DNA from: Squalus acanthias
Lineage: Eukaryota
Reading direction: 5' to 3'
Length of the DNA stretch: 64,000 nucleotides
NCBI GenBank assembly: GCA_030390025.1
Contig: CM059432.1
Coordinates: 25,794,001-25,858,000, forward strand
Made by a program: the position numbers and the translations under genes
Shown here: one piece after another, positions 9,001 to 64,000 of the stretch
How the letters are laid out: each line of letters begins with the position of its first letter
How positions within the stretch are numbered: the stretch's first letter is position 1
The notes under the pieces: generated by a model
The model's database searches: none
The model's input: the letters and a program-made list of their open reading frames with translations, nothing else
Told to the model about the DNA's origin: nothing

Positions 9001-12000
9001 TCGACCTCACTCCTGGGCCTCGACCTCGCTCCTGGGCCCCGTCCTCGTCCCTGGGCCTCGTCCTCGCTCCTGGGCCTCGTCCTCGCTCCTGGGTCCTGAC
9101 CTCGCTCCTGGGCCTTGACCTCGCTCCTGGGCCCCGTCCTCGCCCCTGGCCTCATCCTCGCTCCTGGGCCTCATCTCGCTCCAGGCCCTCGACCTCGCTC
9201 CTGGGTCCTGACCTCGCTCCTGGGCCTTGACCTCGCTCCTGGGCCCCATGTTCGCCCTGGGCCTCATCCTCGCTCCTGGGCCTAATCTTGTTCCTGGGCC
9301 TCGTCCTCGCTCCTGGGTCCTGACATCGCTCCTGGGCCTCGTCCTCGCTCTTGGGCCTCGACCTCGCTGCTGGGTCCAGACCTCGCTCCTGGGCCTCATC
9401 CTCGCTCCTGGGCCTCGAACTCGCTCCTGGGTCCCGTCGTCGTTCCTGTGTCCCGACCTCGCTCCTGGGTCCCGACCTCGCTCCTGGGCCCCGACCTTGC
9501 TCCTGGGCCTCGACCTCGCTCCTGCGTCCCGTCCTCGCTTCTGGGTCCCGACCTCGCTCCTGGGCCGCGACCTCGCTCCTGGGCCTCGACCTCGCTCCTG
9601 GGTCCCGGCCTCACTCCTGGGCCTCGACCTCGCTCCTGGGTCCCGTGCTCGCTCATGGGCCTCGACCTCACTCCTGGGCCTTGACCTCGCTCCTGGGTCC
9701 CGACCTCACTCCTGGGCCTCGACCTCGCTCCTGGGCCTCAACCTCGCTACTGGGCCTCGACCTCGCTCCTGGGTCCCGACCTCGCTCTTGGGCCTCATCC
9801 TCGCTCCTGGGCCTCGACCTCGCTCCTGGGTCCCGACCTCGCTCCTGGGCCTTGTCCTCGCTCCTGGGCCTCGACCTCGCTCCTGGGTCTCGACCTCGCT
9901 CCTGGGTCCTGTTCTTGCTACTGGGGCCCGTCCTCGTCCCTGGGCCTCATCCTCGTCCCTGGGCCTCGTCCTCGCTCATGGGCCTCGACCTCGCTCCTGG
10001 GCCCCGTCCTCGTCCCTGGGCCTCGTCCTCGCTCCTGGGCACCGACCTCGCTGTTGGGTCTCGTCCTCGCTCCTGGGTCCTGACCTCGCTCCTGGGCCTC
10101 GACCTCGCTCCTGGGTCCCGACCTCGCTCCTGGGTCACGACCTCGCTCCTGGGCCTTGTCTTCGCTCCTGGGCCTCGACCTCGCTCCTGGGTCTCGTCCT
10201 CGCTCCTGGGTCCCGACCTCGCTCCTGGGCCTCGACCTCGCTCCTGGGTCCTGACCTCGCTCCTGGGCCTCGACCTCGCTCCTGGGTCCCGACCTCGCTC
10301 CTGGGTCACGACCTCGCTCCTGGGCCTTGTCTTCGCTCCTGGGCCTCGACCTCGCTCCTGGGTCTCGTCCTCGCTCCTGGGTCCCGACCTCGCTCCTGGG
10401 CCTCGACCTCGCTCCTGGGCCTCGACCTCGCTCCTGGGCCTCGACCTCGCGCTTGGGCCCCGTCCTCGTCCCTGGGCCTCATCCTCGCTCCTGGGTCCTG
10501 ACCTCACTCCTGGGCCTCGTCCTCGCTCCTGGGCTCCGTCCTCACCCCTGGGTCTAGTTCTTGCGCCTGGATCCCGTCCTCGCTCCTGGGTCCCGACCTC
10601 GCTCCTGGGCCTCGATTTTGCTCTTGGGCCCCGTCCTCACTCTCGGGCACCGACCTCACTCTTGGGTCTCGTCCTCGCTCCTGGGCACCGTCCTCGCTCC
10701 TGGACACCGTCCTCGCTCCTGGGTCCCATCCTCGCTTCTGGGCCTCGTCCTCGCTCCAGGCCCTCGACCTCGCTCCTAGGTCCTGACCTCGCTCCTGGGC
10801 CTTGACCTCGATCCTGGGCCCCGTGTTCGCCCCTGGGCCTCATCCTCGCTCCTGGGCCTCATTCTTGTTCCTGGGCCTCGTCCTCGCTCCTGGGTCCTGA
10901 CCTCGCTCCTGGGCCTCGTCCTCACTCCTGGGCCTCGACTTCGCTCCTGGGTCCCGACCTCGCTCCTGGGCCTCATCCTCGCTCCTGGGCCTCGACCTTG
11001 CTCCTGGGTTCCGTCATCGCTCCTGCGTCCCGACCTCGCTCCTGGGTCCCGACCTCGCTCCTGGGCCTCGACCTCGCTCCTGCATCCTGTCCTCGCTCCT
11101 GGGTTCCGACCTCGCTCCTGGGACTCGACCTCGCACCTGTGCCTCGACATCGCTCCTGGGTCCCGGCCTCACTCCTGGGCCTCGACCTCGCTCCTGGGTC
11201 CCGTCCTCGCTCCTGGGCCTCGACCTCACTCCTGGGCCTTGACCTCGCTCCTGGGTCCCGACCTCACTCCTGGGCCTCGACCTCGCTCCTGGGCCTCAAC
11301 CTCGCTCCTGGGCCTCGATTTTGCTCCTGGGCCCCGTCCTCGCTCCTGGGCCTCGACCTCGCTCCTGGGCACCGACCTCACTGTTGGGTCTCGTCCTCGC
11401 TCCTGGGCCTCGTCCTCGCTCCTGGGTCCCGACCTCGCTCCTGGGCCTCGACCTCGCTCCTGGGTCTTGTCCTCGCTCCTGGTCCTCGACCTCGCTCCTG
11501 GGTCTCGTCCTCGCTCCTGGGGCCCGACCTCGCTCCTGGGCCTCGACCTCGCTCCTGGGTCCCGACCTCGCTCCTGGACCTCGACCTCACTCCTGGGCCT
11601 CGACCTCGTTCCTGGGCACCGTCCTCGTCCCTGGGCCTCGTCCTCGCTCCTGGGCCTCGTCCTCGCTCCTGGGTCCTCACCTCGCTCCTGGGCCGTGACC
11701 TCGCTCCTGGGCCCCGTCCTCGCCCCTGGGCCTCATCCTTGCTCCTGGGCCTCATTCTCGCTCCAGACCCTCGACCTCGCTCCTGGGTCCTGACCTCGCT
11801 CCTGGGCCCAGACCTCGCCCCTGGGCCTCATCCTCGCTCCTGGGCCTCATTCTCGCTCCTGGGCCTCGTCCTCGCTCCTGGGTCCTGACCTCACCCCTGG
11901 GCCTCATCCTCGCTCCTGGGCCTCGTCCAAGCTCCTGGGTCCCGACCTCGCTCCTGGGCCTCGTCCTCGCTCCTGGGCCTCGACCTCGCTCCTGGGTCCC

Positions 12001-15000
12001 GACCTCACCCCTGGGCCTCATCCTCGTTCCTGGGCCTCGTCCTCGCTCCTGGGCCTCGACCTCGCTCCTGGGCCTCGACCTCGCTCCTGGGCCTCGACCT
12101 CGCTCCTGGGTCCCGACCTCGCTCCTGGGCCTCGACCTCGCTCCTGGGCCTCGACCTCGCTCCTGGGCCTCGACCTCGCTCCTGGGCCCCGTCCTCGTCC
12201 CTGGGCCTCGTCCTCGCTCCTGGGCCTCATCCTCGCTCCTGGGTCCTGACCTCGCTCCTGGGCCTTGACCTCGCTCCTGGGCCCCGTCATCGCCCCTGGG
12301 CCTCATCCTCGCTCCTGGGCCTCATTCTTGCTCCAGGCCTCGACCTCGCTCCTGGGTCCTGACCTCGCTCCTGGGCCCAGACCTCGCCCCTGGGCCTCAT
12401 CCTCGCTCCTGGGCCTCATTCTCGCTCCTGGGCCTCGTCCTCGCTCCTGGGTCCTGACCTCACCCCTGGGCCTCATCCTCGCTCCTGGGCCTCGTCCTAG
12501 CTCCTGGGTCCCGACCTCGCTCCTGGGCCTCGTCCTCGCTCCTGGGCCTCGACCTCGCTCCTGGGTCCCGACCTCACCCCTGGGCCTCATCCTCGTTCCT
12601 GGGCCTCGTCCTCGCTCCTGGGCCTCGACCTCGCTCCTGGGCCTCGACCTCGCTCCTGGGCCTCGACCTCGCTCCTGGGTCCCGACCTCGCTCCTGGGTC
12701 CTGACCTCGCTCCTGGGCCTTGACCTCGCTCCTGGGCCCCGTCCTCGCCCCTGGGCCTCATCCTCGCTCCTGGGCATCATTCTCGCTCCAGGCCCTCGAC
12801 CTCGCTCCTGGGTCCTGACATCGCTCCTGGGCCTCGTCCTCGCTCTTGGGCCTCGACCTCGCTGCTGGGTCCAGACCTCGCTCCTGGGCCTCATCCTCGC
12901 TCCTGGGCCTCGAACTCGCTCCTGGGTCCCGTCGTCGTTCCTGTGTCCCGACCTCGCTCCTGGGTCCCGACCTCGCTCCTGGGCCCGACCTTGCTCCTGG
13001 GCCTCGACCTCGCTCCTGCGTCCCGTCCTCGCTCCTGGGTCCCGACCTCGCTCCTGGGCCGCGACCTCGCTCCTGGGCCTCGATCTCGTCCTGGGTCCCG
13101 ACCTCGCTCCTGGGTCTTGTCCTCGCTCCTGGTCCTCGACCTCGCTCCTGGGTCTCGTCCTCGCTCCTGGGGCCCGACCTCGCTCCTGGGCCTCGACCTC
13201 GCTCCTGGGTCCCGACCTCACCCCTGGGCCTCATCCTCGTTCCTGGGCCTCGACCTCGCTCCTGGGCCTCGACCTCGCTCCTGGGCCTCGACCTCGCTCC
13301 TGGGCCCCGTCCTCGTCCCTGGGCCTCGTCCTCGCTCCTGGGCCTCGTCCTCGCTCCTGGGTCCTGACCTCGCTCCTGGGCCTTGACCTCGCTCCTGGGC
13401 CCCGTCATCGCCCCTGGGCCTCATCCTCGCTCCTGGGCCTCATTCTTGCTCCAGGCCCTCGACCTCGCTCCTGGGTCCTGACCTCGCTCCTGGGCCCAGA
13501 CCTCGCCCCTGGGCCTCATCCTCGCTCCTGGGCCTCATTCTCGCTCCTGGGCCTCGTCCTCGCTCCTGGGTCCTGACCTCACCCCTGGGCCTCATCCTCG
13601 CTCCTGGGCCTCGTCCTAGCTCCTGGGTCCCGACCTCGCTCCTGGGCCTCGTCCTCGCTCCTGGGCCTCGACCTCGCTCCTGGGTCCCGACCTCACCCCT
13701 GGGCCTCATCCTCGTTCCTGGGCCTCGTCCTCGCTCCTGGGCCTCGACCTCGCTCCTGGGCCTCGACCTCGCTCCTGGGCCTCGACCTCGCTCCTGGGTC
13801 CCGACCTCGCTCCTGGGTCCTGACCTCGCTCCTGGGCCTCGACCTCGCTCCTGGGCCCCGTCCTCGCCCCTGGGCCTCATCCTCGCTCCTGGGCATCATT
13901 CTCGCTCCAGGCCCTCGACCTCGCTCCTGGGTCCTGACATCGCTCCTGGGCCTCGTCCTCGCTCTTGGGCCTCGACCTCGCTGCTGGGTCCAGACCTCGC
14001 TCCTGGGCCTCATCCTCGCTCCTGGGCCTCGAACTCGCTCCTGGGTCCCGTCGTCGTTCCTGTGTCCCGACCTCGCTCCTGGGTCCCGACCTCGCTCCTG
14101 GGCCCCGACCTTGCTCCTGGGCCTCGACCTCGCTCCTGCGTCCCGTCCTCGCTCCTGGGTCCCGACCTCGCTCCTGGGCCGCGACCTCGCTCCTGGGCCT
14201 CGATCTCGCTCCTGGGTCCCGACCTCGCTCCTGGGTCTTGTCCTCGCTCCTGGTCCTCGACCTCGCTCCTGGGTCTCGTCCTCGCTCCTGGGGCCCGACC
14301 TCGCTCCTGGGCCTCGACCTCGCTCCTGGGTCCCGACCTCGCTCCTGGACCTCGACCTCACTCCTGGGCCTCGACCTCGTTCCTGGGCACCGTCCTCGTC
14401 CCTGGGTCCTCACCTCGCTCCTGGGCCTTGACCTCGCTCCTGGGCCCCGTCCTCGCCCCTGGGCCTCATCCTTGCTCCTGGGCCTCATCCTCGCTCCAGA
14501 CCCTCGACCTCGCTCCTGGGTCCTGACCTCGCTCCTGGGCCCAGACCTCGCCCCTGGGCCTCATCCTCGCTCCTGGGCCTCATTCTCGCTCCTGGGCCTC
14601 GTCCTCGCTCCTGGGTCCTGACCTCACCCTGGGCCTCATCCTCGCTCCTGGGCCTCGTCCTAGCTCCTGGGTCCCGACCTCGCTCCTGGGCCTCGTCCTC
14701 GCTCCTGGGCCTCGACCTCGCTCCTGGGTCCCGACCTCACCCCTGGGCCTCATCTCATTCCTGGGCCTCGTCCTCGCTCCTGGGCCTCGACCTCGCTCCT
14801 GGGCCTCGACCTCGCTCCTGGGCCTCGACCTCGCTCCTGGGTCCCGACCTCGCTCCTGGGCCTCGACCTCGCTCCTGGGCCTCGACCTCGCTCCTGGGCC
14901 TCGACCTCGCTCCTGGGCCCCGTCCTCGTCCCTGGGCCTCGTCCTCGCTCCTGGGCCTCGTCCTCGCTCCTGGGTCCTGACCTCGCTCCTGGGCCTTGAC

Positions 15001-18000
15001 CTCGCTCCTGGGCCCCGTCCTCGCCCCTGGACCTCATCCTCGCTCCTGGGCCTCATTCTCGCTCCAGGCCATCGACCTCGCTCCTGGGTCCTGACCTCGC
15101 TCCTGGGCCTTGACCTCGCTCCTGGGCCCCATGTTCGCCCCTGGGCCTCATCCTCGCTCCTGGGCCTAATTCTTGTTCCTGGGCCTCGTCCTCGCTCCTG
15201 GGTCCTGACATCGCTCCTGGGCCTCGTCCTCGCTCTTGGGCCTCGACCTCGCTGCTGGGTCCAGACCTCGCTCCTGGGCCTCATCCTCGCTCCTGGGCCT
15301 CGAACTCGCTCCTGGGTCCCGTCGTCGTTCCTGTGTCCCGACCTCGCTCCTGGGTCCCGACCTCGCTCCTGGGCCCCGACCTTGCTCCTGGGCCTCGACC
15401 TCGCTCCTGCGTCCCGTCCTCGCTCCTGGGTCCCGACCTCGCTCCTGGGCCGCGACCTCGCTCCTGGGCCTCGACCTCGCTCCTGGGTCCCGGCCTCACT
15501 CCTGGGCCTCGACCTCGCTCCTGGGTCCCGTGCTCGCTCATGGGCCTTGACCTCGCTCCTGGGTCCCGACCTCACTCCTGGGCCTCGACCTCGCTCCTGG
15601 GCCTCAACCTCGCTCCTGGGCCTCGATTTTGCTCCTGGGCCCCGTCCTCGCTCCTGGGCCTCGACCTTGCTCCTGGGCACCGACCTCGCTGTTGGGTCTC
15701 GTCCTCGCTCCTGGGCCTCATCCTCGCTCCTGGGTCCCGACCTCGCTCCTGGGCCTCGACCTCGCTCCTTGGTCCCGACCTCGCTCTTGGGCCTCGTCCT
15801 CGCTCCTTGGTCCCGACCTCGCTCTTGGGCCTCGTCCTCGCTCCTGGGCCTCGTCCTCGCTCCTGGGCCTCGACCTCGCTCCTGGGTCCCGACCTCGCTC
15901 CTGGGCCTTGTCCTCGCTCCTGGGCCTCGAACTCGCTCCTGGGCCTCGACCTCGCTCCTGGGCCTCGACCTCACTCCTGGGCCTTGACCTTGCTCCTGGG
16001 TCCCGACCTCGCTCCTGGGTCCCGTTCTCGCTCCTGGGCCCTGTCCTCGTCCCTGGGCCTCATCCTCGTCCCTGGGCCTCGTCCTCGCTCCTGGGCCTCG
16101 ACCTCGCTCCTGGGTCCCGTCCTCGTCCCTGGGCCTCATCCTCGCTCCTGGGTCCTGACCTCACTCCTGGGCCTCGTCCTTGCTCCTGGGCCCCGTCCTC
16201 ACCCCTGGGTCTAGTTCTCGCGCCTGGATCCCGTCCTCGCTCCTGGGTCCCGACCTCGCTCCTGGGCCTCGATTTTGCTTCTGGGCCCCGTCCTCACTCT
16301 CGGGCACCGACCTCACTCTTGGGTCTCGTCCTCGCTCCTGGGTCCCGACCTCGCTCCTGGGCCTCGACCTCGCTCCTGGGCCTCGACCTCACTCCTGGGC
16401 CTCGACCTCGCTCCTGGGCCCCGTCCTCGTCCCTGGGCCTCGTCCTCGCTCCTGGGCCTCGTCCTCGCTCCTGCGTCCTGACCTCGCTCCTGGGCCTTGA
16501 CCTCGCTCCTGGGCCCCGTCCTCGCCCCTGGGCCTCATCCTCGCTCCTGGGCCTCATTCTCGCTCCAGGCCCTCGACCTCGCTCCTGGGTCCTGACCTCG
16601 CTCCTGGGCCTTGACCTCGCTCCTGGGCCCCATGTTCGCCCCTGGGCCACATCCTCGCTCCTGGGCCTAATTCTTGTTCCTGGGCCTCGTCCTCGCTCCT
16701 GGGTCCTGACATCGCTCCTGGGCCTCGTCCTCGCTCTTGGGCCTCGACCTCGCTGCTGGGTCCAGACCTCGCTCCTGGGCCTCATCCTCGCTCCTGGGCC
16801 TCGAACTCGCTCCTGGGTCCCGTCGTCGTTCCTGTGTCCCGACCTCGCTCCTGGGTCCCGACCTCGCTCCTGGGCCCCGACCTTGCTCCTGGGCCTCGAC
16901 CTCGCTCCTGCGTCCCGACCTCGCTCCTGGGCCGCGACCTCGCTCCTGGGCCTCGACCTCGCTCCTGGGTCCCGGCCTCACTCCTGGGCCTCGACCTCGC
17001 TCCTGGGTCCCGTGCTCGCTCATGGGCCTCGACCTCACTCCTGGGCCTTGACCTCGCTCCTGGGTCCCGACCTCACTCCTGGGCCTCGACCTCGCTCCTG
17101 GGCCTCAACCTCGCTCCTGGGCCTCGACCTCGCTCCTGGGTCCCGACCTCGCTCTTGGGCCTCATCCTCGCTCCTGGGCCTCGACCTCGCTCCTGGGTCC
17201 CGACCTCGCTCCTGGGCCTTGTCCTCGCTCCTGGGCCTCGACCTCGCTCCTGGGTCTCGACCTCGCTCCTGGGTCCTGTTCTTGCTACTGGGGCCCGTCC
17301 TCGTCCCTGGGCCTCATCCTCGTCCCTGGGCCTCGTCCTCGCTCATGGGCCTCGACCTCGCTCCTGGGCCCCGTCCTCGTCCCTGGGCCTCGTCCTCGCT
17401 CCTGGGCACCGACCTCGCTGTTGGGTCTCGTCCTCGCTCCTGGGTCCTGACCTCGCTCCTGGGCCTCGACCTCGCTCCTGGGTCCCGACCTCGCTCCTGG
17501 GTCACGACCTCGCTCCTGGGCCTTGTCTTCGCTCCTGGGCCTCGACCTCGCTCCTGGGTCTCGTCCTCGCTCCTGGGTCCCGACCTCGCTCCTGGGCCTC
17601 GACCTCGCTCCTGGGTCCTGACCTCGCTCCTGGGCCTCGACCTCGCTCCTGGGTCCCGACCTCGCTCCTGGGTCACGACCTCGCTCCTGGGCCTTGTCTT
17701 CGCTCCTGGGCCTCGTCCTCGCTCCTGGGCCTCGACCTCGCTCCTGGGCCTCGACCTCGCGCTTGGGCCCCGTCCTCGTCCCTGGGCCTCATCCTCGCTC
17801 CTGGGTCCTGACCTCACTCCTGGGCCTCGTCCTCGCTCCTGGGCTCCGTCCTCACCCCTGGGTCTAGTTCTTGCGCCTGGATCCCGTCCTCGCTCCTGGG
17901 TCCCGACCTTGCTCCTGGGCCTCGATTTTGCTCTTGGGCCCCGTCCTCACTCTCGGGCACCGACCTCACTCTTGGGTCTCGTCCTCGCTCCTGGGCACCG

Positions 18001-21000
18001 TCCTCGCTCCTGGACACCGTCCTCGCTCCTGGGTCCCATCCTCGCTTCTGGGCCTCGTCCTCGCTCCAGGCCCTCGACCTCGCTCCTAGGTCCTGACCTC
18101 GCTCCTGGGCCTTGACCTCGATCCTGGGCCCCGTGTTCGCCCCTGGGCCTCATCCTCGCTCCTGGGCCTCATTCTTGTTCCTGGGCCTCGTCCTCGCTCC
18201 TGGGTCCTGACCTCGCTCCTGGGCCTCGTCCTCACTCCTGGGCCTCGACTTCGCTCCTGGGTCCCGACCTCGCTCCTGGGCCTCATCCTCGCTCCTGGGC
18301 CTCGACCTTGCTCCTGGGTTCCGTCGTCGCTCCTGCGTCCCGACCTCGCTCCTGGGTCCCGACCTCGCTCCTGGGCCTCGACCTCGCTCCTGCATCCTGT
18401 CCTCGCTCCTGGGTTCCGACCTCGCTCCTGGGACTCGACCTCGCACCTGTGCCTCGACATCGCTCCTGGGTCCCGGCCTCACTCCTGGGCCTCGACCTCG
18501 CTCCTGGGTCCCGTCCTCGCTCCTGGGCCTCGACCTCACTCCTGGGCCTTGACCTCGCTCCTGGGTCCCGACCTCACTCCTGGGCCTCGACCTCGCTCCT
18601 GGGCCTCAACCTCGCTCCTGGGCCTCAATTTTGCTCCTGGGCCCCGTCCTCGCTCCTGGGCCTCGACCTCGCTCCTGGGCACCGACCTCACTGTTGGGTC
18701 TCGTCCTCGCTCCTGGGCCTCGTCCTCGCTCCTGGGTCCCGACCTCGCTCCTGGGCCTCGACCTCGCTCCTGGGTCCCGACCTCGCTCTTGGGCCTCGTC
18801 CTCGCTCCTGGGCCTCGACCTCGCTCCTGGGTCCCGACCTCGCTCCTGGGCCTTGTCCTCGCTCCTGGGCCTCGATCTCGCTCCTGGGTCTCGTCCTCGC
18901 TCCTGGGTCCCGACCTCGCTCCTGGGCCCCGTCCTCGCTCCTGGGCCTCGACCTCGCTCCTGGGTCTCGACCTCGCTCCTGGGTCCCGTTCTCGCTCCTG
19001 GGGCCCGTCCTCGTCCCTGGGCCTCATCCTCGTCCCTGAGCCTCGTCCTCGCTCCTGGGTCCCGTCCTAGCTCCTGGGCCCCGTCCTCGCTCCTGGGCCC
19101 CGTCCTCGCTCCTGGGTCCCGTCCTCACTCCTGGGCCTCGACCTCGCTCCTGGGCCTCGACCTCGCTCCTGGGCCTCGACCTCGCTCCTGCGTTCTGTCG
19201 TCGCTCCTGCGTCCCGACCTCGCTCCTAGGTCCCGACCTCGCTCCTGGGCCCTGACCTTGCTCCTGGGCCTCGACCTCGCTCCTGCATCCCGTCCTCGCT
19301 CCTGGGTCCCGACCTCGCTCCTGGGCCTCGACCTCGCTCCTGGGCCTCGACCTCGCTCCTGGGTCCCGGCCTCACTCCTGGGCCTCGACCTCGCTCCTGG
19401 GTCCCGTCCTCGCTCCTGGGCCTCGACCTCACTCCTGGGCCTTGACCTCGCTCCTGGGTCCCGACCTCACTCCTGGGCCTCGACCTCGCTCCTGGGCCTC
19501 AACCTCGCTCCTGGGCCTCGATTTTGCTCCTGGGCCCCGTCCTCGCTCCTGGGCCTCGACCTCGCTCCTGGGCACCGACCTCACTGTTGGGTCTCGTCCT
19601 CGCTCCTGGGCCTCGTCCTCGCTCCTGGGTCCCGACCTCGCTCCTGGGCCTCGACCTCGCTCCTGGGTCCCGACCTCGCTCTTGGGCCTCGTCCTCGCTC
19701 CTGGGCCTCGACCTCGCTCCTGGGTCCCGACGTCGCTCCTGGGCCTTGTCCTCGCTCCTGGGCCTCGATCTCGCTCCTGGGTCTCGTCCTCGCTCCTGGG
19801 TCCCGACCTCGCTCCTGTGCCCCGTCCTCGCTCCTGGGCCTCGACCTCGCTCCTGTGTCTCGACCTCGCTCCTGGGTCCCGTTCTCGCTCCTGGGGCCCG
19901 TCCTCGTCCCTGGGCCTCATCCTCGTCCCTGAGCCTCGTCCTCGCTCCTGGGTCCCGTCCTCGCTCCTGGGCCTCGACCTCACTCCTGGGCCTTGACCTC
20001 GCTCCTGGGTCCCGACCTCACTCCTGGGCCTCGACCTCGCTCCTGGGCCTCAACCTCGCTCCTGGGCCTCGATTTTGCTCCTGGGCCCCGTCCTCGCTCC
20101 TGGGCCTCGACCTCGCTCCTGGGCACGACCTCACTGTCTGGGTCCTCGTCCTCGCTCCTGGGCCTCGTCCTCGCTCCTGGGTCCCGACCTCGCTCCTGGG
20201 CCTCGACCTCGCTCCTGGGTCCCGACCTCGCTCTTGGGCCTCATCCTCGCTCCTGGGCCTCGACCTCGCTCCTGGGTCCCGACCTCGCTCCTGGGCCTTG
20301 TCCTCGCTCCTGGGCCTCGATCTCGCTCTGGGTCTCGTCCTCGCTCCTGGGTCCCGACCTCGCTCCTGTGCCCCGTCCTCGCTCCTGGGCCTCGACCTCG
20401 CTCCTGTGTCTCGACCTCGCTCCTGGGTCCCGTTCTCGCTCCTGGGGCCCGTCCTCGTCCCTGGGCCTCATCCTCGTCCCTGAGCCTCGTCCTCGCTCCT
20501 GGGTCCCGTCCTCGCTCCTGGGCCTCATCCTCGCTCCTGGGCCTCGTCCTCACTCCTGGGTCCCGACCTCGCTCCTGGGCCTCGAACTCGCTCCTGGGCC
20601 TCGACCTCTCTCCTGGGCCTCATCCTCGCTCCTGGGTCCCGTCCCCGCTCCTGGGCACCGCCCTCGACCCTGGGCCTCGTCCTCGCTCCTGGGTCCCAAC
20701 CTCGCTCCTGGGTTTCGACCTCGCTCCTGGGCCTCGACCTCGCTCCTGGGCCCCGTCCTCGCTCCTGGGCCCCGTCCTCACTCCTGGGTCCCAACCTCGC
20801 TCCTGGGTCCCGACCTCGCTCCTGGGCCTCGACCTCGCTCCTGGGCCCCGTCCTCGCTCCTGGGTCCCGACCTCGCTCCTGGGCCTCAACCTCGCTCCTG
20901 GGCCTCGATTTTGCTCCTGGGCCCCGTCCTCGCTCCTGGGCACCAACCTCGCTCCTGGGTCTCGTCCTCGCTCCTGGGCCTCGACCTCGCTCCTGGGCCT

Positions 21001-22200
21001 CGACCTCGCTCCTGGGCCTCGACCTCGCTCCTGGGTCCCGACCTCGCTCCTGGGTCCCGTTCTCGCTCCTGGGCCCTGTCCTCGTCCCTGGGCCTCGTCC
21101 TCGCTCCTGGGCCTCGACCTCGCTCCTGGGCCCCGTCCTCGTCCCTGGGCCTCATCCTCGCTCCTGGGTCCTGACCTCACTCCTGGGCCTCGTCCTCGCT
21201 CCTGGGCCCCGTCCTCACCCCTGGGTCTCGTTCTCGCGCCTGGATCCCATCCTCGCTCCTGGGTCCTGACCTCGCTCCTGGGCCTCGATTTTGCTCCTGG
21301 GCCCCGTCCTCACTCTCGGGCACCGACCTCACTCTTGGGTCTCGTCCTCGCTCCTGGGCACCGTCCTCGCTCCTGGACACTGTCCTCGCTCCTGGGTCCC
21401 ATCCTCGCTCCTGGGCCTCGTCCTCGCTCCTGGGTCCCGACCTCGCTCCTGGGCCTCGTCCTCGCTCCTGGGCCTCGACCTCACTCTTGGGTCTCGTCCT
21501 CGCTCCTGGGCCGCGACCTCGCTCCTGGGTCCCGACCTCGCTCCTGGGCCTCGACCTCACTCCTGGGCCTCGACCTCGCTCCTGGGCACCGTCCTCGTCC
21601 CTGGGCCTCGTCCTCACTCCTGGGCCTCATCCTCGCTCCTGGGTCCTGACCTCGCTCCTGGGCCTTGACCTCGCTCCTGGGCCCCGTCCTCTCCCCTGGG
21701 CCTCATCCTTGCTCCTGGGCCTCATTCTCGCTCCAGACCCTCGACCTCGCTCCTGGGTCCTGACCTCGCTCCTGGGCCTTGACCTCATTCCTGGGCCCCG
21801 TCCTCGCCCCTGGGCCTCATCCTCGCTCCTGGGCCTCATTCTCGCTCCAGACCCTCGACCTCGCTCCTGGGTCCTGACCTCGCTCCTGGGCCTTGACCTC
21901 ATTCCTGGGCCCCGTCCTCGCCCCTGGGCCTCATCCTCGCTCCTGGGCCTCATTCTCGCTCCTGGGCCTCGTCCTCGCTCCTGGGTCCTGACCTCACCCT
22001 TGGGCCTCATTCTTGCTCCTGGGCCTCGTCCTCGCTCCTGGGTCCTGACCTCACCCCTGGGCCTCATCCTCGCTCCTGGGCCTTGACATCGCTCCTGGGC
22101 CCCGTCTTCGCCCCGGGCCTCATCCTCGCTCCTGCGTCGCGACCTCGCTCCTTGGTCCCGCCCTTGCTCCTGGGCCTCAACTTCGCTCCTGGGTACCGAC
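1..22200. repeat. 19-bp GC-rich minisatellite/satellite array, consensus CCTCGCTCCTGGGCCTCGA (~1,170 units, continues past the window start)
   Basis: The motif CCTCGCTCCTGGG recurs every 19 nt throughout. Common tail variants are CCTCGA, CCTCGT, TCCCGA, TCCTGA, CCTTGA, CCCCGT and CCTCAT. The ORF track shows the 19-aa periodicity expected from a 3x19-nt frame cycle. The array stops at ...GGGTACCGAC (~22200). Confidence 0.99.
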
Positions 22201-22211
22201 TCCCAGTGGTG

Positions 22212-23732
22212 GAGGACAACACCTTCCTGCTCGACCGACACACTTGCACTCCCACGGGGCAGTACCTCAGCATCCGGTGCAATCTGCTCGAGCAAAGATT
22301 GCTGGCATGCTCTGGCACCGTGAGAGCCCCGGGGCAATGTGGCCGACCCAGCGAGGATGGCAGCAGTCAGTGCTTGCGTGACATCAATCTGAGCCTGCAT
22401 GAGAGCAGTCTGAGACTGGATGGCACTTGCCAATGACTGAATTGCAGCACTAAGCCATTGCGTTGCATTGGCCTGTGCTGCAGCGGACTGCTCCACACTC
22501 CTAACCAGTCCATCCATGCTTTCGGGCACCCTTGTCATTGCACCCATGAGCAGAGTGTGCATGCTCAGGGCTGGCTATTCACGGCCGCGATGACGTGGTC
22601 CTCATCTGAGTCCTGTGCAGCAGGACTCGCTTGCCTACTCGCCCTCCGGGGAGCTGGCCCCCGAGCTTCCCTACCCCCATGGTGTTGCTGCAGCCTGCTG
22701 GGTCCCGGAGCTTCGCCCTCATCAGACCCTACCAACCTGCTCCCCTCCAGGTAAGGCGTGGTCCCAGTTTTGGAATGGGCTCCCTCAGGAGATGCAGGCG
22801 GTGAGGCTCCGGCTTCTTCTTCCTCCTCGCCTGGGGCATCACTGCCACTGGTAGGTTGAGGGACAGGCTGCTCAGCTGGTGGTTCACTATCTGAAAGCAG
22901 GGAGGTACCAGAGTGGCTTTAGTGTCAGGACAGGGGGGCAGTAACGGAGGAAGGACTGGAGACATTTTGTAAGTTGGATTGAAAGTATAAAAGGCTGGTG
23001 TTGTGAGGGGCAAGTAGAATGAGAGAGGAGAGAAAGCTGGTGAACATACCATTGCTGTCCCCAAGGGGGTCGACCTCTCCAGCGGCCATGGCACCTATGA
23101 CCCGGCTGGCAACGATCCTGTGCATGCGCACCTCCAAATTGGTGAGGGTGTGTAGGTCAGCCGGTCCTCCTCTCATGCATTGCTGCTGATGCCTGTTATG
23201 AGAGCTTGGCCTGCAAGAAAAAGGACGGCGTCTGAGTGAATGTGCAGCCATGTGCTTGCCTGATGTGCCTCCCATAGTCGAATAGCCCTTAATGTATGCA
23301 GCCATGTGCTTACCTGATGTGCCTCCCATAGCTGAATAGCCCTTAATGTATGCAAGGTGTGGAATGTGCGTGTGTGTTTTATGAGATGACCATAGGTCTT
23401 GGATGAGTGTTGGGAATTTGGGGTTTTTAAACCCTCTGGGCACAGAGTGAAGTTGAGATGGAGGGATGTCGAGGTATTGAAAAGCAGCCACTCACCCTGA
23501 TCACCCAAGTGAGGTCGTTGAACTTCTTACGACATTGGGTGTGGGTCCTCGGCACCAGGCTCCTGGAGGAGACGTGCTGAGCCACCTCACTCCAGACTCT
23601 TCTGTATTCATGGGGCAATGGCCTCCTGCCACTGTGTGGGTAGAGCACTGCCCGTCACCGCTCCACAGCACCAACCAGAGCCACCAAGGCCCGGTCGCTG
23701 AAGCGCTGAGCTTTTTCCCTGGGCCTATCCAT
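22212..23732 (-). pseudogene. Harbinger Myb/SANT-like gene, inactivated copy (exons 23732-23496, 23210-23050, 22890-~22212)
   Basis: Same splice positions as the intact copy. There is a TGA at codon 26 (23657-23655), a 2-bp deletion at the start of exon 2 (161 vs 163 nt), and exon 3 is cut by the satellite. Confidence 0.9.
23246..23353 (-). repeat. Two copies of the 54-bp intron-1 tandem repeat
   Basis: AGCCATGTGCTT(G/A)CCTGATGTGCCTCCCATAG...AATAGCCCTTAATGTATGC occurs twice and is homologous to the 5-copy array at 29981-30250. Confidence 0.9.
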
Positions 23733-24094
23733 TGGTGGTTCCAGCACAATTGATTTACAGGTCTCTCCAAGCCGAGATTAAAGGCTGCAATGAGCAGGGT
23801 GTGGCTGGACAGCAACATGGATCCTCCCCTTTAAGAGCTGGCCGGCGCCAGTGTGTCTGTGTTCCATTGCTAAATGACATCACCTGAGCTCCGGTAGCGC
23901 TCCGAGGTAACGCCTCGCTCCTCGACGTTAGCGCCTTAATACAGGTGTGTAGCGCCTGATTTAGTGCTCAAATCACCTCCAGGGGCAATAGAGGCCAAGT
24001 TTGCAGTCGGAGGCGATAATTAGCGCCGGGCGCTAAACTTTGCGCCCGGCCGATAATAGCGCCCCAAACAGGGCGATACCGAATTTCTCCCCCT

Positions 24095-26885: not shown

Positions 26886-26965
26886 TAGGTGGTCAGCAGT
26901 TTAGTGGGAATTAGGTCAAGAGAGCAGGAAGTGGGTCTTATGGGCAAGATGAGCTCGATGAGTGC

Positions 26966-28560: not shown

Positions 28561-29602
28561 TAATGATGAGAGAAACAAACAATTTCAGAGTGTTGTGCTA
28601 CCAGTTATATTGCTGTAATCAGATTGATCTGCTGGTCTTGTTGTGGTAAAAAAAATTGTATATTAGGTGTCCTAGCAACAGAGTTAAGCCAGAGATAACT
28701 GGAACCAAGGCAGAGATTTCTTGAGATTCATTGTGGTGAGTGATATCAGGACAGAAAGAATTCAAGAAATTGTACAAAATTATAAACAAGCAACAGATTT
28801 CCTATAGCCTAGTGTATACTGAATCATCCTTTTTATCATCTCAATATTACTGATTTCAGGCTAGACATTATGTTGGTGGGAATTAAATTAGTCAAACTAA
28901 TGGATCTCATTATTTGGTAACTTTAAGCATAATCCAATAACCACATCTGTGTGAATTTTCATCAACCTATATCTGTTTTTTCTTCCAAAATAGAACAGCA
29001 GAATTTCTGCAGTCTAATATTTCCCAGGACCTCATCAATGTGGACTAATGAGCTTCTTTCATCAACGCTGTAACTGTTATGAATAGAAAGGGATGCCATT
29101 CAATAAGTGTGCATGTTGTATCTGGCAATCAGCACCACATCATTCAAGTGGATGTCAGGTATTCTGCAAGCTGCCATGATTCATTTATCCCACTGTAGTC
29201 AACAGTGCCACCATTATGTAAAGTAGCATCTAGACACCATGGGGGGAGAAATTCAGTATCGCCCCATTTGGGGCGCAATTATCGGCCGGGCGCAAAGATT
29301 AGCGCCTGGCGCTAATTATCGCCACCGACTGCAAACTTGACTTTTATCGCCCCTGGAGGTGATTGGAGTGCTAAATCAGGTGCTACACACCTGTCTTAAG
29401 GCGCAAAGGCCGAGGAGCGAGGCGCTAACTCAGAGCGCAGGCGCAGCGCAGGTGCTGTCAGTTAGCGATGGAACACAGACACACTGGCGCCGGACAGTTC
29501 TTAAAGGGGAGGGTCGATCTTGCACTCCAGCCACACCCTGCTCATTGGAGCCTTGAATCTCGGCCTGGAGAGACCTGTGCCTAAATCTTCCAGCCAAGGA
29601 CT

Positions 29603-31584
29603 ATGGAGAGGGTGAGAGAACGAGCTCAGCGCTTCAGCGAGCGGGCCTTGGATGCTCTGGTTGGCGCGGTGGAGCGCAGAAGATCTATACTCTTCCCTGA
29701 GAGTGGCAGGAGGCCTTTGCCGCGCGAGTACAGAAGAGTGTGGAGGGAGGTGGCTCAGAGCGTCTCCTCCAGGAGCATGGTGCCCAGGACCCATATACAA
29801 TGTCAAAAAAAGTTCAATGACCTCACTCGGATCGTCAGGGTGAGTGGCTTTTTTTCAATACCTCTCCATCCCTCCATCTCAACCTCACTCTATGGCCAGA
29901 GGGTCTTAAAACCCCAATGCACAACACTCATCCAACACCTATGGCCCTCTCATGAAACACACACGCACATTCCACACTATGCATACAGTAAGGGCTATTC
30001 ACCTATGGGAGGCACATCAGGTAAGACCATGGCTGCATACAGTAAGGGCTATTCACCTATGGGAGGCACATCAGGCAAGACCATGGCTGCATACAGTAAG
30101 GGCTATTCACCTATGGGAGGCACATCAGGCAAGACCATGGCTGCATACAGTAAGGGCTATTCACCTATGGGAGGCACATCATGCAAGACCATGGCTGCAT
30201 AGAGTAAGGGCTATTCACCTATGGGAGGCACATCAGGAAAGACCATGGCTGTATATTTACTCAGATGCTGTCCTTTTTCTTGTAGGCCAAGCTACCTCAT
30301 AATAGGAGACAGCAGCAACGGACGGGTGGAGGGCGGCCTCAGCTGCAACCCCTCAGTGATCTTGAGGCGCACGTCCACAGGATTGTGGCAAGCCGGGTGA
30401 TCGGTCCCGTCGCCACTGGAGATGCCGACCCCATTCTGGACAGCAATGGTAAGGTCATCACCTTTTTGTCCTCTGTCCTTCCACTTGTCCCTCACAACAC
30501 CAGCCTTTGACACTTTCAATCCAACTTACTAAATCGCTGCACTCATTCCTCCCTTACTGCCACCCTGTCCTCACGCTAAAGCCACTCTTGTACCTCCCTG
30601 CTTTCAGATGGTGATTCACCAGCTGAGGAGACGGGCCTTCAAGCTGCCAGTGGGAGTGAAGCTGCAGCCGAGGAGGAAGATGAAGGTGGAGCATCAGTGC
30701 CACCCTCTCCCGAGGAAGCCCATGCCCACACTGGGAACACGCCTTCCCTGGAGGGGAGCAGGGGGGAAGGGTCTGATGAGGGTGAAGCTCCAGGACCCAG
30801 CGGGCTGCAGCAACGCCATGGGGGTAGGGAAGAACGGGGGCCTTCTCCCCGGAGGGAGAGTATGCCAGCGAGTCCTACTGCACTGGACGCAGAGGAGGAG
30901 CGGCTCATCGCTGAAATGAACACCCAGGCGATGGACATGCACACTGAGCTCATGGGTGCAGTGGGAAGGGTGCCCGAATGCATTGAATCACTGACAAGGA
31001 GTGTGGAGCACTTCGCTGTAGCACAGGCGGATGCCACACTAAAGCTTAGTGCTGCAATTCAGTCACTGGCTGCCGTGATCCCATCTCTGACTGCTCTCAT
31101 GCAGACTCAGATTGAGGCCACGCGAGCACTGACTGCTGCCATCCTCGATGGTTCGTATACATTTCCCCGGGGCTCTCACCGCGCTGCAGCAGGCCAGCAA
31201 TCTGTGCTCCAGCAGATTGCTCCGGATGCTGAAGTGCTGCCCCGTGGGAGTGCCAGTGTGTCGGTCGAGCAGGGAGTTGCTGTCCTCTCTCAAGATGACA
31301 GCATTCCTGCTGCCACCACTGTCACTTCTCCACTGCAGTTGCCACCGCCTGTAGGACAGACTGCTGCCGCCCATGCAGAGTTGATGCAGTCTGCAGCCGG
31401 GCCCTCCAGGCCCAGAGCTGGTCGAGGCCGTCCTTCAAGGGCATCTGCAGTCTCAGGTTCTGACAATCAGCAGCCTTCCACCAGCCTTGCTGCAGCCACT
31501 GAGGTCCCATTACGGAGGAGCAGTAGGGTGGGAAGGGGGGAAGTGCGCAAGGGAAGGAGATCACCCTCGAAGGGCAAAAAGTAG
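29603..31584 (+). CDS. Harbinger Myb/SANT-like DNA-binding protein, 3 exons (29603-29839, 30286-30448, 30608-31584), 458 aa
   Basis: Exon 1 reads MERVRERAQRFSERALDALV...W..VA...RT..QC.KKFNDL (Myb/SANT-like pattern) and ends at donor GTGAGT (29840). Acceptor TTTTTCTTGTAG precedes exon 2 (AKLPHNRRQQQRTGGG), which ends at donor GTAAGG (30449). Acceptor CTTTCAG ends at 30607. Phases 0 and 1 join in frame with ORF 30697-31584, 1,377 nt in total with no stop. Confidence 0.88.
29981..30250 (+). repeat. 54-bp tandem repeat x5 inside intron 1 of the Myb/SANT gene
   Basis: Unit GCATACAGTAAGGGCTATTCACCTATGGGAGGCACATCAGGCAAGACCATGGCT, five near-identical copies. Confidence 0.97.
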
Positions 31585-31796
31585 GAGGTGTGACAAAATG
31601 TTGGTCATTTTTTTATTAAAGGCCGAGGTTCGTGGTCAAACTTTTGAACATTATCTCCAGGTTATGAGAACCAGTTATGTTAATGACTGTGTTTTTGTGT
31701 TTCTTTCTATTAGTTTGTCATGAGGAAATGACACACACAGAGTTTGTGAAATAAATAAGTTTTTGTATTCAAAATATACATGTTTAGTCTTTGGAA

Positions 31797-32963
31797 TCAT
31801 TGGTGCCTTGGCCGGCTTAGGGGTTGCGGGTTGGTTTCATTCATGTTGTTCTCAATGGCAGAAGCCATTTCCTCAGCAGGGGCCTCGAAGCGGCTTGCTA
31901 TCAGCCGTTGACGGACGGCCCTTCCAGTTTCTACATTGTAGGCCTCCCTCCCGCCTTGGTGCTGCTGATGATCATCCTCCTCCTCTTCCTCCTCCTCTTC
32001 CTCCTCCTCCTCTGGTGGTGCTCCAAGGCCTGGTGGCATTGGCTGGGTTCTGAGGATTGCCATGTTATGCAGCATGCAGCACACAACTACGAAGTGGGAA
32101 ACTCGCTCAGGCGAGTACTGCAGGGCTCCTCCAGAATGGTCCAGACAGCGGAACCTTTGCTTGAGCACGCCGATTGTGTGCTCAATGATGTTCCTGGTAG
32201 CTTGATGGCTCTCCTTGCACCACAGCTCAGCAGGGGTGTTGGGCGTACGGAGCGGTGTCATCAGCCAGGTGCTCAGTGGATATCCCTTGTCCCCGAGAAG
32301 CCAACCAACTGGCTGATGCAGTGCCTCGAAAAGTTCTGCCACAGTAGTCTGGTGCAGGATGAATGCATCGTGGCAGCTGCCAGGATAGTGGGCATTGACA
32401 GCGAGTATCAGCTGTCTGTGGTCACAGACCAACTGAACGTTCAAGGAATGGAACCCCTTTCTGTTGCGGAAATCCTCGGCATTCTCATGCGGAGCACGCA
32501 AAGCCACATGCGTGCAGTGAATGGCGCCCTGCACCATGGGGAAGCCCGCTATCCTAGCAAAGCCCATTGCGCGTTCTTGCTGCTTGTCTGGGGTCATGGG
32601 GAAAGAGATGTACTCTCGTCTCCTTTTAAAGAGGGCATTTGTGACCTGACGGATGCAGCAATGCACCGCGAACTGGGAGATATTGGCGATGTCCCCAGTA
32701 GCAGATTGAAATGAGCCAGTGGCATAAAAGTTCAGAGCCACTGTGATCTTCACTGCCACCGACAGAGACGTCCTGGACCACAGTTGAGGCTGCAGATTTG
32801 GCTGCAGCAGGTGGCAGAGCTCAGTGACTACCTCCTTGCTGAAGCGCAGCCTTCGCAAACACTGCTCCTCAGACATATTAATATATGTGAATTGTTGGCG
32901 ATATACCCTGGGAGGGTAAGGTCTCCTGTACAGAGGCCTGTTGGCCCTCCTCCGTCTGGCCAT
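31797..32963 (-). CDS. Harbinger (HARBI1-like) DDE transposase, ~388 aa from the first ATG; probably catalytically dead
   Basis: Motifs ALNFYATGSFQ, GFPMVQGAI(H)CTHV, FRNRKGFHSLNVQLVCD, PGSCHDAFIL, LLGDKGYP, RNIIEHTIGVLKQRFRCL and CCMLHN are present, with an acidic tail. The frame is open to 33113 but the first ATG is at 32963. The usual GAIDCTH reads GAIHCTH. Confidence 0.93.
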   Translation of the reverse strand: MARRRRANRPLYRRPYPPRVYRQQFTYINMSEEQCLRRLRFSKEVVTELCHLLQPNLQPQLWSRTSLSVAVKITVALNFYATGSFQSATGDIANISQFAVHCCIRQVTNALFKRRREYISFPMTPDKQQERAMGFARIAGFPMVQGAIHCTHVALRAPHENAEDFRNRKGFHSLNVQLVCDHRQLILAVNAHYPGSCHDAFILHQTTVAELFEALHQPVGWLLGDKGYPLSTWLMTPLRTPNTPAELWCKESHQATRNIIEHTIGVLKQRFRCLDHSGGALQYSPERVSHFVVVCCMLHNMAILRTQPMPPGLGAPPEEEEEEEEEEEEDDHQQHQGGREAYNVETGRAVRQRLIASRFEAPAEEMASAIENNMNETNPQPLSRPRHQ

Positions 32964-33235
32964 GATTGCCACTCTCTCTTTGCGTCTCTGTGTCCTCTGA
33001 TTCTGGTGGCGCAGGACGACGCCCACAATCAGTGCAGCCCCCACAGTCTCTTGGCAATCAAAGTTATGAAGGTCAAAAACCAAAGTACCTGCAAAGTTAT
33101 GATCAGTAGCCAAAACTACCTCACACAGCGTTGACTCAATGCAGAAGTCTCTCTTTCTCTCTCTCCGAATCTCTCTCTCTCTCCCTCAGAATGAGTGGTG
33201 CAAAATGTCAACCACAGAGAAAGACAGGAAGAGGC

Positions 33236-33389
33236 CCCCTTTAAATAGCGCCCCCCCCCCCCCAGCCCCACAGCGACTGGGAGCGTTCCAGTCTTCCGGT
33301 CGTTGGTTGCGCCAGGCGGAAAGGATGGGGGCGCCACTCAATTTCCGCTCCGGGACGGCACAAGGGCGTTGCACCCTCGTATGACGTCA
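33236..33389 (-). promoter_or_regulatory. Candidate transposase promoter: CRE palindrome TGACGTCA (33382-33389) and TATA-like TATTTAAAGGGG (~33252-33237)
   Basis: Both motifs lie upstream of the transposase ORF. Both are retained in the two MITEs (TGACGTCA at 43914-43921 and 62852-62859). Confidence 0.5.
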
Positions 33390-34469
33390 AGATCTGCGTG
33401 CGCAGGAGATCGCAGCAGTAAAGTTTAGCGCCGCCGCAAAATGTCTAGTTAATTTCGCGAGCGGCGCAAACATCGCTGCGCCCGGGCGCTAGTTGCTTTG
33501 CGCCCCATTAGCGCCCTCTTAAGGCGCTAACGGGAGGCGCAACCAACTGAATTTCTCCCCCCATGAATTGTGCTGAAAAAGGTTTCCACAAGCATACAAA
33601 TACAGCATCCATAGGCAAACTGAAGCAAAGATTCTGCTACTACTACAGCTCCACAACAGTGTCCCAAATGATAGGTGTCCTGCATGCTGCTCAATTATAC
33701 TCTCACAAGAGAAGTCACTATACAAGTGGAAGAGTCCTAAGAGGACAATGAGCCCAAGGCTGAAGAGGTATCTGCTGCATTAGACCCGTAGGAAGACAAA
33801 TCTGATAATGTCTAATAGACAACAACCCAGAGCCAGAGCCTGAATACAAATGAAAAAAAGGTTTAACTGAATAAGAATGAATGCCAAAGTAGAATGTACA
33901 CGCCTTGTCTTACTTTATTAATATTGGGGCATAGTAAGCACGGCACCAAAAAAAATGGTCAGTTGGAGTACTAGGGAAGTAGCATGCACAGCATAGAGTA
34001 AACCATTCTACATACACTGTTATTGCAGAAACACTATAGGTCACACTTCTTGTGGGGACATAAATAGTTTACATTGTGATAAATGTTGAAAGGTGTCCTC
34101 CAAACCAGCAAGACCACCGGAAACAGCATGCATTTAACATTGGAATGCACTCATAAGAGAAGGATATAGGCTGACCACTGGGTTAGCTGTATGGTGATCT
34201 CACAATTTCACTGTGAACTGGCATACTTGAAGGGAACCTACTGACTTAAAGGAACTGCCCAGTTTTAAAGAGATGGCCATGGTATTTTTGGCCTGGAGTC
34301 TGTGGACGAAGTCGGTGAGGAGAGTTTTGAAATGTACTGCCCCTGTTCAACAAGTATTCTCCTCTTATTTGTCTCATTTTAATGCTTATTCACTGTTTCA
34401 CTCATTACACAAGTGGAAAGAAAATTGGAAATCCATCAGACTGGGTGGCAATGAAAAACAACAAAAGGA

Positions 34470-43200: not shown

Positions 43201-43218
43201 GCCTTATGTAGGTTCTGA

Positions 43219-44092
43219 GGGGGAGAAATTCGGTATCGCCCCATTTGGGGCGCAATTATCGGCCGGGCGCAAAGTTTAGCGCCTGACGCTAATTATCGCC
43301 TCCAACTGCAAACTTGGCTTCTATCACCCCTGGAGGTGATTGGAGCGCTAAATCAGGCGCTACACACCTCTCTTAAGGCACTAACGCTGAGGAGCGAGGC
43401 GCTACCTCAGAGCGCTGGCGAAGCTCATGTGATGTCAGTCAGCAATGGAACACAGACACACTGGCGCCGGCCAGTTCTTAAAGGGCAGGGTCGATCTTGC
43501 TCTCCATCCACACCCTGCTCATTGCAGCCTTGAATCTTGGCCTGGAGAGACCTGTACATCAAATCTGTTGGAAAGAACAATGGAGAGACCCAGGGAAAGA
43601 ACTCAGAGTGCAGCCCCCACAGTTTCTTCTAAATCGATGCACGGAAGATCAAATCAAAAAGAACCTGCAAAGTGCTGCTCGGTACCCAAAACTCCTCAAC
43701 ACAGCTTTGAATATCTCCTGCAGTCTCTCTCTCTCACTCAGAATGCGCGGTGCAAAAATTTCGCCGACAAAAAAAGGCAGGAAGCGGTCGCCTTTAAATA
43801 GTGCTCCCCCAGTCCCTTCCCGACTGCAAAACGCTCCCCTCAACTTGTCGTTGCTAGCGGCAGGCGGTAAGACAGAGGGTGCCACTCAATATCCGGTCCG
43901 GGGCACTACCGACTGACGTCACGATCTGCGGGCGCAGGAGATCGTGGCAGTAGTGTTTAGCGCCGCCGCAAAATGTCTAGTCAATTTCATGAGCGGCGCA
44001 AACATCGCCGCGCACGGGCGCTAGTTGCTTTGCGCCCCATTAGCGCCCTCTTTAGGCACTAATGGGAGGCGCAAACCAACCGAATTTTTCCC
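43219..44092 (+). mobile_element. Non-autonomous deletion derivative (MITE) of the 29242 Harbinger, 874 bp
   Basis: TIRs GGGGGAGAAATTCGGT / ACCGAATTTTTCCC with TSD TGA (43216-43218, 44093-44095). Left and right arms are joined at CTCAGAGTGCAGCCCCCACAG (~43602-43622). Confidence 0.95.
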
Positions 44093-51314: not shown

Positions 51315-51474
51315 AATGTTATTTGATGGTCCAGCATGCAAGCAGTGTAAGCTATTATTATTTACTATCGGCAAGTTGTTAATTGGTTAAAATATGATAA
51401 CACTGACTTTGAACTTTTTTTTCCTTTCTCTTGTTCCTAATTTAGAAGATTGCAATCTCCTCCAATAACGTGAT

Positions 51475-62600: not shown

Positions 62601-64000
62601 TGTAAGATCCGGATCACAGGCCACACACAGATTACCCAAAAGGGTTTTAGAAGTTGTAAGGCTTTTATTAAAGAGCTAGGGGGGAAAAATTCAGTTGGTT
62701 GCGCCTCCTGTTAGCGCCTTAAGAGTGCGCTAATGTGGCGCAAAGCATCTAGCGCCCAGGCGCGGCGAAGTTTGCGCCGCTCGCGAAATTAACTAGACAT
62801 TTTGCGGCGGCGCTAAACACTACCGCCACGATCTCCTGCGCCGGCAGATCATGACGTCAGTCGAGTGTGCAATGCCCCGGTATCGCCCCGGAGCGGATAT
62901 TGAGTGGCGCCCCCTGCCTTACCGCCTGACGCTAGCAACGACAGGTTGAGGGGAGCGTTCTGCAGTCATGAAGGGAAAGGGGGAGCGCTATTTAAAGGTG
63001 ACCGCTTCCTGCCTTTTATTGTTGGTGCCATTTTTGAACTACGCATTCTGAGAGAGAGAGGGAGAGACTTCTGGAGAGATTTAACGTTGTGTGAAGGAGT
63101 TTTGGGTACTGAGCAGCACTTTGCAGGTTCATTTTGATTTGCCATTCCTTGTATCGATTTAGCAGAGACTGTGGGGGCTGCACTCTGAGCTCTTTGCCTG
63201 GTACTCTCCATTGTTCTTTCCAGCACATTTGATGTGCAAGTCTCTCCAGGCTGAGATTCAAGGCTGCAATGAACAGGATGTGGATGGAAAGCAAGATTAA
63301 CCATCCCCTTTAAGAACAGGCCCGTGCCATTGTGTGTGTGTTCCATTGCTGACTGACATTACATGAGCTTCGCCAGCGCTCTGAGTTAGCGCCTCACTCC
63401 TCGGCCTTTGCGCCTTAAGACAGGTGTGCAGCACCTGATTTAGTGCTCCAATCACCTCCCGGGGCGTTAAAAGTGAAGTTTCCAGTCAGTGGCGATAATT
63501 AGCACCAGGCGCTAATTTTTGCGCCCGGATGATATTTGCGCCCCAAATGGGGCGCGACTGAATTTTTCCCCCCTACAGTTTTAAAGCATAATCAGGTATT
63601 ACATATGGTTTAAGCCGAGTATAATAGACATACAACCCGTGACAGTAGGAGCGATCTACGACTCCCGAATCAGAATGCCACGACCGGACGGACAGGGAGG
63701 CAGTACGGTGGTCTCGGATTGGGTGGATTCCTGCAGTCTGCTGCAGCGGTCACTTCCGTTGGGTCATCTCTCAAGCTGTTGGAGGTGTTAGGCCGACAGC
63801 CACCTTAGACGCTAAACTTGACTAAAGTGTTAGGCCGTAGCCACTCGGGGAAACCTTCGCCCCTAACTGCCTGATTTCCTCTCTCGGTCGTCTATATTTA
63901 TAGTTATTTCAGTGGGCTGGTAGTCACCTGGTGTCAATCATTTGATCCCCCATCCTATTATCCAATTGTGAAGCGGGAAGGCATCCCTCGCCGTCCCTTT
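62601..64000 (-). mobile_element. Probable LTR (partial), interrupted by a Harbinger MITE
   Basis: CR1 homology stops at a TGTAAG start (CA end on the minus strand). There is a minus-strand AATAAA at ~62669-62664 and a TATAAAT at 63902-63896, in LTR order. The other end is outside the window. Confidence 0.5.
62679..63572 (-). mobile_element. Non-autonomous deletion derivative (MITE) of the 29242 Harbinger, 894 bp
   Basis: TIRs GGGGGGAAAAATTCAGT / ACTGAATTTTTCCCCC with TSD CTA (62676-62678, 63573-63575). It has the same internal junction as 43219-44092 (CTGTGGGGGCTGCACTCTGAG at ~63169-63189). Confidence 0.95.

Follow-up and report, generated by a model that had tools for sequence, protein, structure and literature searches.

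Possible origin of a 19-bp shark satellite array in the Myb exon of a decayed Harbinger transposon

A GC-rich 19-bp satellite in the shark Squalus acanthias is probably linked to the PIF/Harbinger transposon family that it abuts, when the three readings that connect the two are taken together. The leading one of these readings, to which, as a matter of judgement, we give roughly an even chance, is that the array was born in place, expanded from the Myb exon of a decayed Harbinger copy. The window, meaning the whole stretch of 64,000 nucleotides analysed here (GenBank assembly GCA_030390025.1, contig CM059432.1, positions 25,794,001 to 25,858,000), contains the array at 1..22203 on the + strand (~1169 units) and shows it extending beyond the window's 5' end. 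An earlier, sequence-only reading had proposed that the satellite grew from the left subterminal region of the Harbinger element. The tie to the family survives our analysis as the probable state of affairs; the proposed source fares less well, as the edge of the array falls in Myb exon 3, and other sequence is better placed than the left subterminal site. What could be established for the Myb-exon origin concerns geometry, orientation, match statistics, and the age of the motif.

Tandem-repeat detection places the array at 7-22193, with ~1169 copies and 82% matches. Units carry on average 2.2 differences from the consensus, which is itself found in 180 of 1174 array units. Two 1-kb blocks (10407-11406 and 17717-18716) are 99.7% identical at an offset of 7310 bp, which argues for recent amplification, and further offsets with 90-97% identity indicate recent multi-kb duplications within an otherwise diverged array. 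The array (1-22203) has an observed/expected CpG ratio of 0.75, compared with 0.52 for the Harbinger element and 0.42 for the flank. An exact 32-bp satellite pattern had no matches in metagenome contigs, a collection that is uninformative for shark DNA.

The flank holds four copies of the Harbinger family: a full-length element, two MITEs, and a truncated copy. The full-length element (29241..33562, + strand) carries TIRs, a 3-bp target duplication (TSD), and the two genes of the PIF/Harbinger superfamily, encoding a Myb/SANT-like protein and a DDE transposase. The Myb/SANT-like gene (29603..31584, + strand; exons 29603-29839, 30286-30448, and 30608-31584) matches PF13873 with an E-value of 1.7e-10, and its spliced coding sequence, which has no internal stop, yields the 458 aa given by the sequence-only reading. 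The transposase frame (31797..33185, - strand) matches DDE_Tnp_4 (PF13359) with an E-value of 3.2e-36. One MITE lies at 43218..44092 (+ strand) and is absent from the earlier reading; the other lies at 62679..63573 (- strand). The truncated copy (22204..24094, - strand) has its left TIR at ~24094 and a broken Myb gene, and touches the array. All four share a left end (276-309 of ~340 columns), and together they occupy 7985 of 41797 flank bases. Because the family covers 19% of the flank, a Harbinger copy beside the array is not in itself a rare arrangement.

The three two-ended copies have target duplications of ATG, TGA, and TAG in element orientation (29238-29246, 33557-33565, 43216-43223, and 62676-62685), and the best-fitting element ends have 5 G (left) and 6 C (right). 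Similarly, zebrafish Harbinger3_DR has a Myb-like gene, a DDE transposase, TIRs, a 3-bp TSD, and MITEs, as cited in PMC2836001 and PMC3016246. Unlike Harbinger3_DR, the shark family has its own TIR and its own subterminal motif, GGCGCWAA, a candidate binding site only. Intron 1 of the Myb gene contains a 54-bp tandem repeat, with ~5 copies in the full element (29980-30255) and 2 in the truncated copy (23243-23354); this is a true internal variable repeat of the family and a ready satellite seed. Elsewhere in the flank, a decayed Myb/SANT-like frame (58532-59035, - strand; PF13873, E-value 1.6e-8) is unmatched by the main element and belongs to a different Harbinger family. A 33-bp AT-rich repeat forms two short arrays, at 41533-41758 and 43024-43218, the second of which stops exactly at a MITE's left end (43218). 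Decayed LINE-like fragments, with reverse transcriptase and endonuclease frames recognised by eye, lie at 25000-27800, 45200-57500, and 59800-62500.

The edge shared by the array and the truncated copy is internal to the element. The truncated copy, which is 82-85% identical to the full-length one, runs from the left TIR through Myb exons 1-3 into satellite. It is colinear with the full element to 31287 in exon 3, continues with 8 bp that correspond to 31314-31321, and then passes into the array, placing the break at element position 31287/31321. A plain TIR-bounded insertion at the array edge was rejected, as the edge is not a TIR. A 315-aa open frame over the junction (21627-22574) was likewise rejected as a gene: the truncated copy has lost the Myb frame through a 26-bp deletion and carries a stop in exon 1. 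The part of this frame translated from satellite, used as a protein query, found no match among 8000 candidates scored.

In the intact element, a satellite-like site lies 83 bp past the last homology of the truncated copy, so that the array edge adjoins this candidate source and has the same orientation. The site (31405..31429, - strand) lies in Myb exon 3, where it encodes SRPRAGRG, and forms an imperfect direct repeat with 17-bp spacing. When satellite multimers were aligned to the whole element, it gave the top local match, agreeing with a satellite dimer in 23 of 27 columns across two 1-bp gaps and lying on the array's strand, and it is also the best local match in the 41.7-kb flank, with a score of 30 versus 27. 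Element-wide, this score was reached in 0.45% and 0.55% of 2000 shuffles. On the required strand it was reached in none of 20000 dinucleotide shuffles of the 150 bp past the break and in 25 of 20000 for 300 bp, both windows having been picked after the site had been seen. Permuted units compared with the real sequence of the same 150 bp succeeded in 1, 1, 1, 1, 8, and 2 of 800 cases under six scoring schemes. Cyclic edit distance is a stricter metric, as the built-in direct repeat earns no credit. Measured in this way, the site as a monomer is 3 edits from the unit, two of them insertions, a distance attained locally in 52 of 20000 shuffles and element-wide in 130 of 1000. Because a 3-edit match arises this often across the element, the case for the Myb exon rests on position.

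An HMMER search with the Myb exon-3 protein returned 11 relatives, and the 6 of these 11 that were looked up come from the genera Pristiophorus, Heptranchias, and Heterodontus. The peptide at the site (alignment consensus AAGxSxPRAARGRP) is kept in the homologs of those three shark genera; the motif has therefore long belonged to the element and was not captured from the satellite. Given the age of the peptide and the presence of the subterminal site in all four copies, the direction would be from element to satellite if either similarity is by descent. Word-index protein searches that used Myb exon 3 and the Myb domain as queries returned no match, whereas HMMER had found its 11 relatives, so negative results from that index carry little weight. 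Three gene models, P0001, P0009, and P0010, fuse Harbinger Myb exon-3 sequence to other-looking sequence, and P0010 is named V-set/Ig-like. These fusions are probably annotation artefacts and possibly exonisation.

Other samples also bear on the gap between parent and array. The Myb exon was found in 20 of the 22 sequencing runs listed, from 9 studies, and for four runs, representing three coded organisms, between 7567 and 16633 contigs per run were mapped to 31120-31720 only, with the proviso that contigs drop rare variants. Several contig joints skip from 31298-31321 to 31378-31468, among the 15 of 57 joints listed, most of which carry no defined intervening sequence. These joints suggest that the loss of ~83 bp was a local deletion of an ordinary kind. 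The contigs show substitutions at 31404, 31417, 31424, and 31428; no insertion in 31405-31429 was present among the 9 indels listed for the four runs at a 1% threshold. Neither satellite nor an array-element joint was found among the 24 of 1289 contig loose ends listed.

These data are consistent with the following pathway for the Myb-exon origin. Slippage at the 17-bp-spaced direct repeat of a dead copy may have seeded the tandem, and two 1-bp insertions and one substitution, fixed early, would have produced the 19-bp unit. The array would have grown beyond 22 kb through block duplications and unequal exchange, and small deletions of 26 bp and ~83 bp would have trimmed the flank. The remainder of the element (Myb end, transposase, and right TIR) would lie, now or formerly, on the far side of the array. 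The subterminal 17-mer would then be a coincidence at the ~1% level, and the array would be passive DNA unconnected with the family's proteins. Points that count against this pathway include the ~83 bp missing from parent to array, the lack of intermediates in the four window copies and among the contig rows listed, and the subterminal match, which is left unexplained. Transitional units at the array edge and pieces of the element within the array were looked for, and none were found. None of 1136 gap-free units finishes like the first repeat of the Myb-exon site. Units at the array edge are more diverged (3.0 versus ~2.2 differences, n=9), yet not in the direction of the element.

The second place of likeness is the left subterminal site (29406..29424, - strand). 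As the sequence-only reading stated, the 17-mer that is the reverse complement of 29406-29422 matches the ...CCTT variant of the satellite at 16 of 17 positions, and it has exactly one occurrence in the window. The variant had been described as common, a label that does not hold, as this form begins only 40 of 1136 gap-free units. Against the consensus unit the 17-mer matches at 15/17, and the stretch 29407-29424 is 2 edits away; the single base that mismatches the variant, a C at unit position 11, occurs in none of 1136 units. The site does sit between two GGCGC(A/T)AA subterminal repeats, GGCGCAAA at 29400 and GGCGCTAA at 29421. It is present in all four copies, matching the ...CCTT variant at 16/17 in the full-length element, 14/17 in the truncated copy, 14/17 in the MITE at 43218, and 15/17 in the MITE at 62679. 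The sequences quoted earlier for the latter MITE (63392-63408) and for the truncated copy (23913-23926) were both recovered as quoted. The MITE site matches the CAC form, which begins 9 of 1136 units, at 16/17 and is 3 edits from the consensus; the site of the truncated copy (23912..23929, + strand) is single and 4 edits from the unit.

A shuffle check of this match, which the sequence-only reading had called for, places it modestly beyond chance, at ~0.5-3% element-wide, with a weaker outcome when every array 17-mer is accepted as a target. Shuffling was done over the whole element or in 300-bp blocks, 1000 times each. A 17-mer with at most one mismatch to any array 17-mer appeared 89 and 77 times, respectively; the counts fell to 28 and 25 when the target had to be a variant of at least 5 copies, and to 6 and 6 for at least 20 copies. 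Of 2000 shuffles, 1.6% and 2.6% reached a local score of at least 27, that of the subterminal match. As a tandem unit, a sequence no more than 2 edits from the consensus arose 9 times when 1000 elements were shuffled and twice in 10000 shuffles of the left end. The subterminal match is thus roughly a 1% event, modestly above noise yet no proof.

With 2 edits, this site offers the closest monomer match, and a Harbinger-terminal source has a precedent in VaccSat7 (PMC7290377). A satellite of subterminal origin would descend from the 18-bp stretch between the two motifs, in the haplotype shared by the full-length element and the MITE near 63 kb, and would have grown elsewhere before a deletion brought it against the truncated copy. 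We consider this unlikely. An array born at the subterminal site would border the 165-bp TIR-side end and not the middle of exon 3; the visible edge is therefore on the wrong flank, joining Myb exon 3 at a distance of 1.7 kb from the site. Furthermore, the copy that abuts the array has the 4-edit haplotype with a single unit. Copies with several units at the site, which the sequence-only reading had envisaged, do not occur in the window: the site is single in each of the four copies, versus 3-5 units in VaccSat7 elements. Finally, a subterminal origin leaves the Myb match by the junction to chance, and units carrying 4 random substitutions of the subterminal site reached the Myb-exon score in none of 20000 trials.

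By sequence alone, the two sites tie, and position favours the Myb exon. It takes 2 edits to turn the subterminal site of the full-length copy into the consensus unit and 3 for the Myb-exon site, and of six scoring schemes three score the former higher and three the latter. Units carrying 3 random edits of the Myb-exon site reached the subterminal match in 16 of 20000 trials. Only three places in the 41.7-kb flank come as close as 3 edits to the unit: the Myb-exon site, the subterminal site, and the copy of the latter in the MITE at 62679, all in the Harbinger family. If the Myb exon is the source, the case would illustrate how scoring a brief GC-rich match against many satellite variants can mislead as to origin.

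A third connection between satellite and family would make the unit a mosaic, in which template switching or conversion placed a 6-10-bp piece from the subterminal site within the Myb-exon repeat, and this hybrid expanded in place. No consensus position lacks a match at one or other of the sites, and where the Myb-exon site departs from the unit, its three differences cluster in a single tract identical to subterminal sequence, so that both matches would be explained without coincidence. However, disjoint sets of mismatches are expected ~70% of the time by simple counting, the sites lie 2 kb apart, and their direct alignment spans only 6 bp. Moreover, no hybrid of Myb-exon and subterminal sequence was found among the matches listed from the contigs of the four runs. 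A mosaic is accordingly quite improbable in our view. If true, it would mean a monomer composed from two parts of the parent transposon 2 kb apart, in an array of more than 22 kb with the parent attached.

Some of the same observations fit a satellite that owes nothing to the family. The unit's resemblance to transposon sequence goes weakly beyond chance at the two sites, each single match being a 0.5-3% event element-wide under most schemes and a 13-40% event under some. A BLASTN comparison of the whole flank with the array gave no hits at E<0.01, the Harbinger family is abundant in the flank at 19%, and no intermediate arrays were seen in the four window copies or among the listed matches from other samples' contigs. 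The satellite may have arisen elsewhere and a Harbinger copy landed beside or in the array, after which turnover removed the right part of the copy; the fortuitous resemblance at 31405-31429 may have guided this loss. Both matches would then be coincidences of GC-rich, CCTCG-type sequence. Such a history is a genuine though minority possibility. It requires two independent coincidences, one of which would have to fall no more than ~100 bp from the break and on the correct strand, and it does not account for the fact that all three flank places within 3 edits of the unit fall in the Harbinger family.

The sequence-only reading had further suggested that Harbinger proteins recognise the satellite. 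Such a functional pair, in which the Myb protein binds the array and the array titrates or recruits the transposition machinery, is compatible with the other readings and draws on two observations. For Harbinger3_DR, PMC2836001 cites binding of the Myb-like ORF1 to the ends of the element; in the shark element, the subterminal site sits inside the end region. However, the end motif GGCGCWAA, the putative binding site, occurs 30 times in the four copies and not once in the 22.2-kb array; in the full element there are 5 copies per end and none internally. The subterminal match itself spans the spacer between two of these motifs. Recognition by Harbinger proteins is thus unsupported, and we regard it as very improbable.

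Satellites derived from transposons, including Harbingers, are already known, and the mechanism considered here is not new. In the case of VaccSat7, a satellite derived from Harbingers, non-autonomous elements carry 3-5 units in tandem close to their 3' terminus (PMC7290377). The shark case differs in that none of the four element copies has the unit in tandem, the unit measures 19 bp, and coding sequence is the source with the better position; target duplications also differ, being TAA/TTA in the Vaccinium Harbingers (PMC7290377). In Lathyrus sativus, long arrays of Ogre-derived satellites arose from short repeats inside the element (PMC7004042), and the shark array resembles them in its fixed position and orientation relative to the coding domains of the element. 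On the other hand, the Ogre satellites come from 3'UTR repeats of an LTR retrotransposon and have many intermediates (PMC7004042), whereas the shark array is known from one locus with one visible flank and no intermediates.

Any segment within a transposable element, open reading frames included, can seed tandem repeats (PMC9659126). Examples from reading frames include chicken HinfI from CR1, Phodopus PROsat from L1, and rye E900, and Xstir and miDNA4 derive from MITEs (PMC9659126). The reading-frame examples in section 2.2 of that review are all retrotransposons, in contrast to the DNA transposon that would be the parent here, and the word Harbinger is absent from its main text. The portions of PMC9026859 and PMC11406177 consulted describe no Harbinger-derived satellite, and we found none reported from a shark in the open-licence literature, supplements aside.

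If the Myb-exon origin is true, this locus would be a clear snapshot of a vertebrate satellite that formed out of a cut-and-paste transposon's coding sequence and is still joined to its parent. It would add, by a mechanism already known, to the picture of shark genomes building arrays of tens of kilobases from decayed mobile elements.
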